Source: Octopus vulgaris
Taxonomy: Eukaryota
Reading direction: 5' to 3'
Assembly (NCBI GenBank): GCA_951406725.2
Contig: OX597825.1
Span: 78,678,001-78,742,000 of the forward strand
DNA: 64,000 nucleotides
Below, piece after piece: positions 12,001 to 39,000 of this stretch. How positions within the stretch are numbered: position 1 is the first letter of the stretch; each line of letters begins with the position of its first letter. A program made the position numbers.

Positions 12001-15000
12001 GCTTTTCATCCTTTCGGGATCGATAAATCAAGTACCAGTTACGCACTGGGGTCGATATAATCGACTTGATCCGTTTGTCTGTCCTTGTTTGTCTCCTCTG
12101 TGCTTAGCCCCTTTAGGGCAGTAAAGAAATAGGTATTTCGTCTGCCGCTACGTTCTGAGTTCAAATTCCGTCGCGGTCGACTTTGCCTTTCATCTTTCAG
12201 GATCGATTAAATAAGCACCAGTTACGCACTGAAAGGCAAAGTCGACCTCGGCGGAATTTGAACTCAGAACGTAGCGGCAGACGAAATACCGCTAAGCATT
12301 TCGCCCGGTGTGCTAACGATTCTGCCAGCTCGCCATCTTACCAGGTTATCAGTATTGTTGTACCTAAGCGATATCTTAAGATAACAACGTACATATTTAT
12401 ATGTGAAAGCCCAATGTCAAATGACAGGTGTGTTCATAAGGTTATGGAGGGTTCGACTCCAAGACCGGTTCACATCTCACGTTGCTCCTATTTACGCAAC
12501 TAAAAATATACACCTGCCGGATTGTTGGTGCAACTTTCTTTCTCTCCAAGTTGTCTCACCTTGCTTGTTCCGTTGCGTCAAGGATTCGGAATGAGGGTTA
12601 ACGCCCTTTGGAGCTTGTACTTTTTCATGTAAGGTCTCTAAAGAAAGGTTGCTCTTTGAGACTGAATCTCGAAGCGAAAGTAGATCACTTTCGAGTGTAC
12701 CGGAATGTTTTCTAAACAGATATAATTACCATTATTTTATTCCTCCCGTCTCTTTACGCGCTTACACTGAATTTGAACCAGCTTGGCAAGCCTTAGCATA
12801 CACCAACAAAATTTAGTTTGCTGATTACTGTACAGTAATAGAGGTTTCTATTTAGCTCCAAAGGACTGTGTCAGTGTTTATCACTGACAAAGAGAAATTA
12901 AACCGAAATACCGGTGCATACTAGTCTGCTGACATCATTTGCTGCGTAGGAAGTCTTTGGGGGAGAATTTGTCCTACAAGACCGATATTCACTATTATCG
13001 TACACCCCACCGTGTATACTCACCGTCGCGACTCGTTATTTTCATACCGTTACTTACTAAACGTTAAGCAATGTATACAAGCGCAGGTTTGGTTGCGTGG
13101 TTGAGAAGCTTACTTCCCAATCATGTGGTCTTGGGTTCAGTCCCACGGTACATCACCTTGGGTAAGTGTGATCTATTATAGCCCTGGGCTGACCAAAGCT
13201 TTATGAGTGAAATTGTTACGCTGAAACTGAAAAAAAAAACGTCATATATAAATAGGTATGTGAGTGTTGTTGTTGTTGTGTTTGTGTGTATCTTTGTGTT
13301 TGTGTTCAATTCATCCTACCGCCACCACTTAACAACCGGTATTGGTAAACTAGTAGTCCACCAAAAAGCGCAAGAGGAAATAAATACTAGGCATGGTCGC
13401 AGTGGAGTAAAAAATGAGATTTTTTTCCTTCGTATTTAATTCTAAAATAAAATGAAATTTCAGCGATTTTTTATTACTCTTTTACTTGTTTCAGTCATTT
13501 GACTGTGGCCCTGCTGGAGCACCGCCTTTAGTCGAGCAAATCGACCCCAGGACTTATTCTTTGTAAGCCTAATACTTATTCTATCGTCCCTTTTGCCGAA
13601 CCGCTAAGTTACGGGGACGTAAACACACCAGCATCGATTGTCAAGCGATTTTGGAGAGACAAACACAGACACACAAGCATATACACACACATACATACAT
13701 ATATATATATATATATACATATATATATATATATATATATATATATATATATATATATATATATATATAGCGGTTCGGCAAAAAGAGACCGATAGAATAA
13801 GTACTGGGCTTACAAAGAATAAGTCCCGGGGTCGATTTGCTCAACTAAAGGCGGTGCTCCAGCATGGCCGCAGTCAAATGACAGAAACAAGTAAAAGAGT
13901 AAAAGAGTAAAAAGAGTATATATATATACATATATACGACGGGCTTCTTTCTGTTTCCCTCTACCAAATCCACTCACAAGGCTTTGGTCGGCCCGAGGCT
14001 ATAGTAGAAGACACTTGCCCAAGGTGCCACGCAGTGGGACTGAACCCGGAACCATGTGGTTCGTAAGGAAGCTACTTACCACACAGCCCCTCATACGCCT
14101 ATAAGCCACTCCTACGCCTATTCTTAACAATGTACTCTTTAACTTGCCCGATTTGTTATGTCACTTAATACATATTTCGTGTCAAACGTACCCAGAAAAA
14201 TGTACTGTGATTGTAGAACAAGTCTATTATATATGTGACTATATGTTGTGTAGTATTTGCATTGACTAATAAATAGTGTCATTTTCTGCCAAATATCTTT
14301 TTTCAGCTTGAAGGAACGTTAGTTCTCCAGTTGACCGAAAATGCCGTCATAAGTTTCGACGATTATATGGATCAAAAGAAACCGAATAAAAACAAAAGGA
14401 ATCCGTGGTTCCAGAAGTTCTGGCAAGAGGTCTTTAAATGTAAGCTGCCATCAGATAAATACAACAGATCTCACCACTATAACTTCGGCAAAGTACGACT
14501 TTGTACCGGCAAAGAAGACGTCGCTAAGTATGTGAATTCAGTGCAAACAGACGCTGAACATCTCAGCAACGCCATCATGGCTTTCGCACAGACATTACAT
14601 GTAAGTAGTAACATGACTTTTCGCATTTTTTTTTTATCAAGTTTAGCAGAATCGTTGGAGCATCGGGGAAAATGTCTTGCCGTGTTTGTTCCGGCTCTTT
14701 TTATTCTGTGTCGAAATCCTACTGAAATCAGCATTGCTTCTCATCTTTTTGGAATGGCACAAGTCTAAGTAGCTGAGGCGATAGTATCATTTAACCCTAC
14801 GCCCCCAGAAGAAGGAGAGAAAGTTGTGGCGAAAGAGTCAGCAGAAGTTCGCCATTACCTTCTGCCGGAGCCACATTGAGTTTAGGTGTTTCGTTCATAA
14901 ACACACACATCACCCTGTCTGAGATTCGAACCCGCGATCTCTCGACTGCAAGGCCATCATCACTACTTATTTATTTTTATATCGACAGTTTTTCATTTTC

Positions 15001-36000: not shown

Positions 36001-39000
36001 CGATGGTTTCGAATTCCACGTCACAAAACTTGACCGAAGAAACAAATAGATTACCAGATGAAAACCTTCAAAATAATGGCACAAAAGCAAGAAAAAACCA
36101 GAAAAAATCTATCGATGATATTAATAAGAACGTTTCTAAAAGTGCTGGAAATAGCGAGAAGACTGAAGTGTTCCAGAGTGGGGTAACAACTGCCGTTTTC
36201 TTGGATGGTTCTAGCAAGAATAAAAGTACCATAAATAGCACCGAGACAATTACCAAAAGTAATTCTTCGAATACTACTGATAATGCTACCACTACTGACA
36301 CGACCGGAAACAAATCTGCTACTGCAATTAATACTACTAATACTACTACTGCTAATACTACAAGCTCAACAATAATAACTGCTAGTGCTCCATCAACTAC
36401 GGCTACTGCTAACAAAACTATTGATGCTGATACCAGTGATACTAACAGTACCGTAACAACCACAGCATCTGATATTGTAAGTACAAATACAGCAAGTCTA
36501 ACTACAGCCGCAACATCAACGACTACCACCGACGCTGCTTCTGCTATCACTACCTCTCCTACGACTAGTAACAGTACGAAAAATTCTAAAAACTTACAGT
36601 TATCATTTGAGAAAGTTTTTTGAGAAGCATTTACAAAGTTGCGGTTTTGGTTTCAATCTCTACCCAATCTTTATTTTATTTTTTTATATTATTTTTTATT
36701 TTTATTTTTATTATTCTTTAAGGCGGCGAGCTGGCAGAATCGTTACCAGCATTTCTCCCGGCATTTTACGGTTTGAGCTCAAATATCGCCGAGGTCAACT
36801 TTGCCTTTCATCCTTTCGGGGTTGATAAAATAAAGTACCAGTCAAGTACTGGGGTCGATATCATTGATTAACCCCTGCTCCTAAAGAAAACTGCTGGCCT
36901 TGTACCAAATTTTAAAACAATTATTTTTTTTTGTCGATACTATTTTTTATATATTTTTTGTTTTTACTTTTGGTTTAACATCTCTAGCCGACCAACACAG
37001 TCGTGTTTATAATGAACAAAACCAGGAGTACACTAGATGAACACAAAAGGAGTAACAACAACAAGGTAGTAACTCGAGGCAAGCAGCAGAGTATCTTGAG
37101 ACAAACTCCAGGCGAGTTAGTTCGCAACTCAGCTTTCATTCTCCGTTGTTACTGATTCACTCCATTAAAACAAACAGCTAATATCTTCTGAAGAGGCATG
37201 AATGACTCCACTTCTCACGCACCCCTGTTCTATCGCAAATCTAACAAAGCCAATATTGTAGTATAAGGACTCTGTAACTTGTATATATTTGGACCAAACT
37301 TGTTTTTATACCTGCACAAAAGGGACCACCTGTACCATGAGTATGTGTAATCATGTGTATGTGTCCATGTTCTTGTATATAGCTATATATGTATGTAACA
37401 AATTGTGGCTATGTGTAGTAAAATATGTGTGGACATAAATGTGAGTACCAATGTGTAAGTGTGGGTGTATACGAATAAAGGGAGTTGTGTGTTTGCGTGA
37501 GTCCATTTGTATATAAGCGTTCTCGTGTGTGTGCGTGTATCCCACTAATAACATGCTTGTATATGTTACTGCATAAGATTTCATAAGATTCTGCATATGT
37601 AACTGAGTATATTATATATATATATATATGTGTGTGTGTGTGTGTGTGTGTGTGTATATATACATATATGTATGTATACATATATACATATATGTATATA
37701 TATATATATATATATATATATATATATATATATATATACATATATATATATATATATATATATATATATACATATATGTATATATATATATATATCAAAA
37801 ACATATATGCATATATATATATATATACATATATATATATATATATATATATATATATATATATATATATACATATATGTATATATATATACGGTCTACC
37901 GACCATCTAGTGTTGTTTTCAAAAACATTTTGCCATGCACTATATGTATGCATGTATGTATATATATGGTTTCCTTCAACGGAATGATTTTCTCACCTGA
38001 CGATCGCAGTGGCGTGAAATTCAGTTTTAGTAAATCATATGAACTAAACTGCATATTAAGTACTTTCTCCCCCATTTATATATACGTGGGCGTGCTGACA
38101 TGTACCTGGCTTTGGTTAAAAGGAAATACAGGAGGATCATTTATGATTTTATTCAACATATTCCCTTCTCAGATTCACACACTTACTGCAGCGGTCCTTC
38201 AGTCTTTAAGCCCTGTAAAAGAACTCGGACGGTTAAGTCTCCAGCCAGGCCTTTCACGACACCCTTAAAGCCAGGAACTTTCCAGCACTTCCTCGTGTGT
38301 GTGGGGGGGCGCATATATATGTACTAATTGTGACTGATGGTATCCATATTGCAAGAAATAAGAGTCAAAACAGTCACTGTTTTAAGAAGTGCGCAATATA
38401 AATATATATATATATACAATGACAGGGAAGATAACCGCTCCATTAACGCCTGTAGGATCACTAGACTAGACTAGTTTCGCCTATCAGTTGTAGACTCGTC
38501 GGTAATGACTACTGAAACGTTCGAGTAGGGCGGCTATCTCCCCTGTCAGTATATATATATATATATATATATATATATATATAGGGAAAATTCACAAAAG
38601 ACGAAGACGGGTGATATAGACAACAAATAGATGTATTAGTATAACGCTCGGGAAGTGAAAAGTCTTTAACGTTTCGAGCCTACGCACTTCCACAGAGAGG
38701 AACACAGAAAGGAACAAGGAGAGAAATAAAGAATGTGTAGTGGCTAGCGATATATATATATATATATATATATATATATATATATATATATATATATATA
38801 TATATATATATATATAGGTGCTTCGGTACTCTCAGGCACGATTGGTGATGATAACATTTTTCCTCTGTGATATTATATTGTGCCAAGTTGTTTATATTAA
38901 TTTTTGATATATGCATTAGCATTTCGCTAAATCAACCATAAATTTTTGATAAAAATATAATATACTGGCAGCCGGATTTAGCCAAGCCGTCGAGCGCTTG

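Follow-up and report, generated by a model that had tools for sequence, protein, structure and literature searches.

A conserved octopus gene for a metabotropic glutamate receptor-type ectodomain with a sequon-dense tail and no seven-transmembrane domain

The defining parts of a class C receptor are a Venus flytrap (VFT) domain, a cysteine-rich stalk and a seven-transmembrane (7TM) domain. A stretch of 64,000 nucleotides from Octopus vulgaris (assembly GCA_951406725.2, contig OX597825.1, positions 78,678,001 to 78,742,000 of the forward strand), referred to as the window, carries the 3' part of a gene in which the flytrap and the stalk are present and the 7TM domain is missing. The product starts with a signal-peptide-like segment and a short polybasic stretch, continues with a VFT and a nine-cysteine domain, and ends in a disordered, polar tail dense in N-x-S/T sequons. 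The architecture is solid and unusual. The gene is a conserved stand-alone gene without a 7TM domain; it is not a pseudogene, a misassembly or a splice isoform of a receptor. Regarding its function, the chance is slightly better than even that the product is a secreted, disulfide-linked and heavily glycosylated dimer which binds a ligand other than glutamate.

Gene structure, domains and conservation

Four exons of the gene were located on the plus strand between 14307 and 36623. The AG dinucleotide is present at all four acceptors and GT at all three donors, and the phases of exons A to D are compatible (0/0, 0/1, 1/0, 0). In the list below, residue numbers are those of P0001, the NCBI model protein of O. 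vulgaris.

14307..14600, plus strand: exon A, 294 nt; VFT segment corresponding to residues 339-436; AG acceptor and GTAAGT donor
17563..17668, plus strand: exon B, 106 nt; VFT segment corresponding to residues 437-471 and one base of codon 472; AG acceptor and GT donor
18244..18380, plus strand: exon C, 137 nt; final VFT strands, residues 472-517; AG acceptor and GT donor
35379..36623, plus strand: exon D, 1245 nt, 414 codons and a stop; linker between the VFT and the cysteine-rich domain (CRD), nine-cysteine domain and 341-residue tail; AG acceptor
35424..35597, plus strand: nine-cysteine domain (NCD3G), placed by Pfam and by alignment to mGlu3; the codon of the ninth cysteine is 35595-35597

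The translations of exons A, B, C and D are exact substrings of P0001 (residues 339-436, 437-471, 473-517 and 518-810). All splice sites and phases of the four GT-AG exons proposed in an earlier sequence-only reading of this DNA were thus reproduced. In a tblastn search, exon B was matched by P0001 and P0002, and exon C was matched too. Residues 1-338 of P0001, which comprise the signal peptide and the larger part of the VFT, are encoded by exons upstream of window base 1. Each exon was searched separately, not joined to the others, and the whole-protein analyses were run on database proteins. The related proteins are as follows.

P0001: O. vulgaris, 835 aa, full-length; named "metabotropic glutamate receptor 6-like" by NCBI
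P0002: Argonauta hians, 990 aa, full-length; named "mGluR 3-like"
P0003: 864 aa, full-length
P0004: O. bimaculoides, 577 aa, partial; named "mucin-5AC"; 86% identity to exon D across its full 414 residues
P0005: 829 aa, full-length
P0006: 313 aa, partial

One gene family has thus received three clashing automatic names (mGluR, metabotropic glutamate receptor, 6-like; mGluR 3-like; mucin-5AC), none of which signals the missing 7TM domain.

Exon A was matched to the second half of the mGlu1 VFT with an E value of 3.3e-11 (phmmer against the PDB). Pfam returned no family for exons A, B and C when they were submitted singly, as the pieces are too short; the VFT identity of the window exons rests on the PDB phmmer search and the database proteins, not on Pfam. 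In exon D, residues 16-66 correspond to Pfam NCD3G with 41.6 bits (cut-off 38.9), and an alignment of residues 15-74 with mGlu3 covers its cysteine-rich domain (mGlu3 residues 504-563) and ends there. The exon encodes nine cysteines, the ninth at residue 73, after which 341 residues follow. P0001 aligns to mGlu3 residues 33-571 with an E value of 2.7e-76, and this alignment ends at the ninth cysteine too. The four full-length relatives (P0001, P0002, P0003 and P0005) all match Pfam ANF_receptor with 144-157 bits and NCD3G above its cut-off. The distal VFT and the complete nine-cysteine domain of the sequence-only reading are therefore well founded.

The structure of P0001 was predicted with AlphaFold2 from a 15-sequence alignment, and the predicted local distance difference test (pLDDT) values for residues 50-595 are mostly 80-95. 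Foldseek against the PDB returned mGlu ectodomains throughout. The closest were open/apo forms, 6n4x_A with a target-normalised TM-score of 0.90 and 5kzq with 0.89, into which no functional state is read. Seventeen cysteines are found within residues 1-600 of every full-length relative. Among them, the cysteine aligned to Cys127 of mGlu3, in the lobe-1 loop, is kept in all four, and the positions aligned to Cys240 and Cys527 are kept as well. We take Cys127 of mGlu3 to be the site of the intersubunit disulfide, and Cys240 and Cys527 to form the link between VFT and CRD.

The search for a membrane domain was carried out by hydrophobicity, by Pfam and by tblastn. Hydrophobicity was measured as the Kyte-Doolittle mean over 19 residues (KD19) with a transmembrane (TM) threshold of 1.6; two full-length class C receptors served as controls, and each showed about seven segments above 1.6. 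The read-through form of exon D has no TM segment or hydrophobic segment of the glycosylphosphatidylinositol (GPI) signal type, its highest KD19 being 0.56. The single hydrophobic segment of P0001, P0002 and P0003 is N-terminal (residues ~4-29) and signal-peptide-like; AlphaFold2 modelled it in P0001 as a helix at residues 4-24, and P0005 begins just past it. A conserved polybasic stretch stands right after the predicted signal peptide, at residues ~26-40 of P0001, P0002, P0003 and P0005, and it may bind anionic matrix. A furin-type cleavage site was considered there and dropped, as the stretch contains no R-x-[KR]-R in any of the four full-length relatives.

Pfam 7tm_3 was found in none of the six related proteins P0001-P0006, while the control P0007 gave 231.8 bits. 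Seven 7TM-bearing class C proteins (P0007, P0037, P0049-P0052 and P0054) were used as tblastn queries against the window. At the four exons, the VFT and CRD portions of these queries were matched, and no 7tm_3 similarity above chance was found in the whole 64-kb window, including 27 kb downstream of the stop. Two matches from the 7TM region were at chance level: one of 21 aa at 2525-2587 on the minus strand (E 5.8), and one of 29 aa at 18893-18979, where the sequence is low-complexity poly-Phe (E 0.54). The sequence-only reading had described a class C ectodomain without a 7TM domain, with no TM or GPI segment in the terminal exon and no 7TM frame between the stop and a convergent gene. All of this holds, also under the HMMER comparison with ANF_receptor, NCD3G and 7tm_3 that the same reading had proposed.

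The design is kept in the relatives. Over VFT and CRD, the identity to the octopus protein is 80% for Argonauta and 61% for both P0003 and P0005. The next-nearest proteins found bear a 7TM domain and are only 25-31% identical. An HMMER scan of exon D against 1.84 billion representatives gave 45 matches, only three of which reach into the tail. A profile search seeded with the four full-length relatives gave as the next VFT relative an insect 7TM protein of 28% identity, and a search of the ESM Atlas returned chordate class C fragment clusters only. P0003 and P0005 are encoded on contigs of 3088 and 3123 nt, respectively. Because the corresponding octopus coding region extends over more than 22 kb, with introns of 3-17 kb in between, the simplest reading of these contigs is that they are spliced mRNAs, which would be an indirect sign of expression. 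The earlier view of a dedicated gene that is not decaying agrees with this conservation. In the literature outside subscription journals and supplementary files, no publication describing this protein or accession XP_014786699 was found; expression or proteome tables may list it.

The sequon-dense tail and the binding cleft

The tail of exon D can be divided into three parts.

35619..35678, plus strand: post-CRD block of 20 residues, nearly invariant in all six relatives; one sequon is kept in all six
35679..36233, plus strand: Lys/Asn/Ser/Glu-rich, sequon-dense part (composition and sequon statistics), predicted by AlphaFold2 to be disordered
36234..36620, plus strand: Thr/Ser/Ala-rich part of 129 residues, of which 44 are Thr, 21 Ser and 2 Pro; its short C-terminus is common to O. 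bimaculoides and Argonauta

The post-CRD block is the best conserved portion of the tail in the alignment of the six sequences. Since it is nearly invariant in all of them, a misassembly near 35610, at the junction between CRD and tail, was rejected; the sequence-only reading had named such a misassembly as a result that would overturn it. Past this block, the identity to the window tail falls to 85% in O. bimaculoides, 45% in Argonauta and 24-28% in P0003, P0005 and P0006. The character of the tail is kept across the six, with 13-21% Lys/Arg and 20-35% Ser plus Thr. In the AlphaFold2 model, residues 596-835 of P0001 have pLDDT below 35 and no secondary structure.

Exon D contains 24 sequons, 23 of them within the tail. 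Composition-preserving shuffles of the tail gave 12.1 +/- 2.7 sequons, and only one of 5000 shuffles reached 23. An excess over shuffles was seen in five of the six tails, and four sequon columns are common to all six. The polybasic clusters RRKK and RRRNK are also present in the translation of exon D. A minus-strand open reading frame (ORF) at 36068-36550 (160 aa, Val/Ala-rich) was examined and rejected as a gene, being the antisense image of the Thr-rich codons.

Mucins have a Pro/Thr/Ser-rich, O-glycosylated domain, usually together with VWD, SEA or other mucin modules. In the window tail, Ser plus Thr reach up to 55% within 100 residues and Pro is 2%. Pfam found no mucin module in the window exons or in the six relatives. 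The Thr-rich part occurs in the three octopod sequences (O. vulgaris, O. bimaculoides and Argonauta) and is absent from P0003, P0005 and P0006. Judged by composition, "mucin-like" is a loose, lineage-specific label. Of what the sequence-only reading had said about the tail, the 24 sequons and both polybasic clusters were recounted without change. The polar run from the CRD to the stop stands, with 341 residues in place of about 350, and the Thr-rich end stands too; the mucin-like character is not supported in the form given there, with 2% Pro and with the Thr-rich part lacking in three of the six tails.

The ligand cleft was compared residue by residue with mGlu3. The numbering is that of chain 9ii2_R, in which the residue types at seven positions were confirmed by counting, and the equivalence of residue numbers between mGlu1 and mGlu3 is our assumption. 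According to a passage of PMC2680970, the alpha-amino-acid motif of mGlu1 consists of Ser165, Thr188, Asp208, Tyr236 and Asp318, and Lys409 contacts the side chain of glutamate; a passage of PMC6307864 names Arg78 and Lys409 as critical for glutamate binding. The residues of the octopus protein aligned to the mGlu3 contacts are as follows.

Ser151 of mGlu3: Ser (kept)
Tyr222 of mGlu3: Tyr (kept)
Thr174 of mGlu3: Arg
Asp194 of mGlu3: Tyr
Asp301 of mGlu3: Ile (Leu in P0003 and P0005; a gap in the MAFFT alignment)
Arg68 of mGlu3: Glu
Lys389 of mGlu3: Asp

Only two of the seven glutamate-contact positions are kept, and three of the five alpha-amino-acid contacts are replaced. Thr and Asp, which contact the alpha-amino group, have become Arg and Ile/Leu. 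Both basic residues for the side-chain carboxylate of glutamate are replaced by acidic ones, Glu and Asp; the Asp at the position of Lys389 is encoded by exon A of the window and is found in P0004 as well. The substitutions agree across all four full-length relatives. On these aligned residues, the canonical amino-acid site is not kept, and the octopus protein very probably does not bind glutamate. The term "amino-acid-binding" in the sequence-only reading is not supported in that form: three alpha-amino-acid contacts are replaced, and Arg and Lys are exchanged for Glu and Asp where the distal carboxylate would be held. Because the substituted residues are strictly conserved, the cleft seems still to matter, and their conservation suggests that it is still functional.

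Proposed mechanism and alternatives

In the mechanism that we propose, the protein would be secreted, and two copies would be joined through a disulfide at the conserved cysteine of the lobe-1 loop. The dimer would then serve as an extracellular binding protein, that is, a buffer, carrier or presenter. Its ligand would be something other than glutamate, possibly cationic, since the glutamate contacts are lost from the cleft and acidic residues stand where mGlu receptors have Arg and Lys. The glycosylated, Lys/Arg-rich tail, which in octopods has a Thr-rich extension, would hydrate the head and retain it in extracellular matrix or mucus.

Several observations weigh against this mechanism. First, five of the seven contact positions are changed, and a cleft with such residues may bind no small molecule at all. 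Second, the proposed disulfide-linked dimer depends on one conserved cysteine, to which the role that it has in mGlu receptors is assigned. Third, the Argonauta tail has no excess of sequons: 12.9 are expected, 16 were counted, and a count of 16 is reached in 541 of 3000 shuffles. Fourth, the NCBI model of O. vulgaris itself, P0001, does not read through to 36623. It leaves the tail exon after 36258 (residue 810), passes into a short downstream exon and from there into one more short exon, and so acquires a 25-residue ending. This ending is moderately hydrophobic, with a highest KD19 of 1.40, which is below the threshold of 1.6. The transcript may therefore end elsewhere than in the read-through form, and the protein may be weakly associated with the membrane. 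The elements of the 3' region are listed here.

36259..36264, plus strand: internal GT donor used by P0001, which departs from the window frame after residue 810
41952..42016, plus strand: alternative downstream exon of P0001, 65 nt, encoding 22 moderately hydrophobic residues; exact in-frame peptide match, flanked by AG and GT
36829..36834, plus strand: first AATAAA past the stop, from a pattern search; putative poly(A) signal of the read-through form, with weak evidence, since this AATAAA is part of a repeat copy

In the models of O. bimaculoides and Argonauta, the tail is read through and its C-terminus resembles that of the window at 36620; the 7TM domain is missing from both 3' forms, the read-through form and the form spliced at 36258. 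The repeat just mentioned is a short interspersed one found on both strands (~36700-36880, 48559-48741, 63028-63240 and others), and its translated motif occurs many times in the ORF lists. The copy next to the gene begins about 100 nt past the stop of the tail frame and includes the first AATAAA.

The changed cleft leads to the alternative that survives best, although we consider it unlikely. Here the ectodomain would act through protein-protein contacts with the cleft as a structural element, either as a dominant-negative or modulatory VFT partner of full-length class C receptors or as a matrix or synaptic organiser. The loss of three of the five alpha-amino-acid contacts, with an Arg where the amino group of a ligand would sit, agrees with such a role, as does the dimer-loop cysteine kept in all four full-length relatives. 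Truncated GPCR (G protein-coupled receptor) ectodomains have also been proposed, in a passage of PMC3477067, to modify the activity of full-length receptors. However, no obvious partner is at hand, the nearest 7TM-bearing proteins found being only 25-31% identical, and at the replaced cleft positions all four relatives have identical residues or conservative exchanges, which suggests a functional cleft.

The proposed binding protein can also be given a more specific form, which is speculative and carries a low probability. The octopus protein would then be the cephalopod class C counterpart of the molluscan acetylcholine-binding protein (AChBP): an old, lineage-wide, secreted VFT dimer whose charge-inverted cleft captures a cationic signal (a basic amino acid, a polyamine or an amine). 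Its glycan-rich, basic tail would park it in mucus or matrix, where it would work as a chemosensory accessory or as a buffer of a transmitter.

The alternative 3' exons raise the question of a surface-attached protein, in which the short hydrophobic C-terminus would be a weak anchor or a lipid-anchor signal. P0001 does use the GT after 36258, and its 65-nt exon at 41952-42016 has proper AG and GT borders, so that an ending with a KD19 of 1.40 results. Nevertheless, this value stays under the threshold above which the control receptors show their seven segments, and the ending includes Lys, Asp and Arg. In addition, the O. bimaculoides and Argonauta models end in a polar C-terminus, and the ends of P0003 and P0005 are polar. 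We regard surface attachment of this kind as improbable.

A hidden 7TM domain is quite improbable. The four exons would in that case be the 5' part of an ordinary receptor gene with 7tm_3 exons beyond the window, and the tail frame would be a terminal exon, retained or alternative, that occurs in a minor isoform. Mammals do have soluble splice variants of mGlu6 (a passage of PMC3477067), a GT stands immediately after the codon of the ninth cysteine, and the downstream search spans 27 kb past the stop. On the other hand, 7tm_3 is missing from all six relatives, which come from independent assemblies, and the first 20 residues of the tail are its best conserved segment. The same tail occurs in five further clusters, the profile and HMMER searches gave no 7TM form above 31% identity, and the convergent ODAD1-family gene bounds the locus. 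Finally, a decaying pseudogene or an artefact of assembly or annotation is hardly credible: the automatic names disagree and the Thr-rich end is repetitive, but the 414-codon frame is open where the other two plus-strand frames over the tail stretch have 17 and 38 stops, and conservation of the cysteines, the signal peptide and the positions of sequons extends to relatives with a VFT identity as low as 61%. Both the hidden receptor and the pseudogene or artefact are poorly compatible with the conservation data.

The locus, its significance and known systems

The intron between exons C and D is 17 kb long and rich in repeats. Large tandem arrays lie at 31807-34642 and produce long spurious ORFs on both strands. 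They contain a 32-nt unit (91-92% matches) at 32868-33148 and 33979-34642, which alternates with arrays at 31807-33968 whose periods are 12, 24, 37, 60 and 84 nt. Microsatellites of the same intron are (ATAC)n at 20742-21100, (TATG)n at 21390-21852, (AAT)n at 24995-25264 and a (TA)n run of about 1.2 kb at 25912-27089. Downstream of the tail, at 42270-43800, unusually long non-repetitive ORFs (117-194 aa) are present on both strands; they look like remnants of mobile elements, and the four tested gave no Pfam match.

About 18 kb downstream of the stop, a convergent gene of the ODAD1/CCDC63 family (outer dynein arm docking coiled coil) occupies the minus strand. Its ORFs at 54513-54848, 56834-57265 and 58489-58686 match Pfam ODAD1_CC with 92, 72 and 67 bits, respectively, so that the convergent CCDC63 gene of the sequence-only reading is right at the family level. 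More coiled-coil-like ORFs without a Pfam match are found at 60483-60752 and 63488-63694, and the region of this gene spans 54513-63694 on the minus strand. The only run of N in the window, 100 letters at 56728-56827, falls between two of the ODAD1-like exons.

A conserved gene which has the flytrap and the stalk, and a glycoprotein tail in place of the 7TM domain, indicates that the sensing module can be used alone. Such a gene would be missed by surveys built on the 7TM signature, because these select by PF00003 or by TM regions: a census of cephalopod GPCRs gathered its sequences by PF00003 (a passage of PMC6408891), and a phylogeny of metazoan mGluRs dropped sequences lacking two or more TM regions (a passage of PMC6307864). 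The three conflicting automatic names of the family merit correction. If the protein is secreted, it would provide a naturally soluble VFT-CRD unit for structural work and would add a new candidate to the proteins that may take part in chemosensation or neuromodulation in cephalopods.

Among known systems, mGluRs are the nearest. The octopus protein resembles them in its full VFT, its nine-cysteine domain and its predicted fold, and mGlu3 (7wi6_A) is the best solved sequence match. It differs from them in the absent 7TM domain, in keeping two of seven glutamate contacts, in the 341-residue, sequon-dense tail after the CRD and in an identity of only ~25-31%. The bit scores of P0001 residues 1-595 against P0045 (286.5), P0037 (274.3), P0007 (262.0) and mGlu3 (260.5) are too close to pick an mGluR class. 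Class IV mGluRs, of the insect mangetout/DmXR type, likewise have non-conservative replacements at the positions of Arg78 and Lys409 (Glu and Asp in the octopus protein). These replacements, present in all class IV members, are read as lost glutamate binding in a passage of PMC6307864. However, both the backbone contacts and the 7TM domain are intact in class IV receptors, whereas the octopus protein has two of five backbone contacts and no 7TM domain.

Soluble ectodomains of GPCRs are known as splice variants (mGlu6, CRF2 and RXFP1), which are proposed to mop up ligand in a passage of PMC3477067. They are ligand-binding ectodomains too, but each is a minor isoform from a gene that makes the 7TM receptor as well. 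In contrast, the ectodomain-only form is the only known product of the octopus gene, has a conserved tail of its own and occurs in several species. Secreted Frizzled-related proteins are stand-alone genes for the extracellular cysteine-rich domain of a 7TM family and bind the ligand of that family (PMC1291380). They belong to another receptor class, use another domain and are widespread in animals. Venus kinase receptors also recombine an invertebrate class C-type VFT with a C-terminal module that is not a GPCR one, and the replaced Lys409 position in them was read as "not glutamate" in a passage of PMC2680970. They carry a TM helix and a kinase and have no nine-cysteine domain, while the octopus protein has neither TM helix nor kinase.

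The molluscan AChBP is a secreted, soluble homologue of the domain with which a neurotransmitter receptor binds its ligand and has been proposed to modulate transmission (a passage of PMC3423370). It shares the phylum of the octopus protein and a similar evolutionary logic. Its fold is unrelated, a Cys-loop pentamer against a VFT dimer; it has no long glycosylated tail, and it keeps the ligand specificity of the receptor. If secreted, the octopus protein would join AChBP as a second example from molluscs in which a receptor's ligand-binding domain has become a free protein. By sequence and predicted fold, it belongs with the mGluR-type ectodomains, from which it is set apart by the missing 7TM domain and the altered glutamate site.

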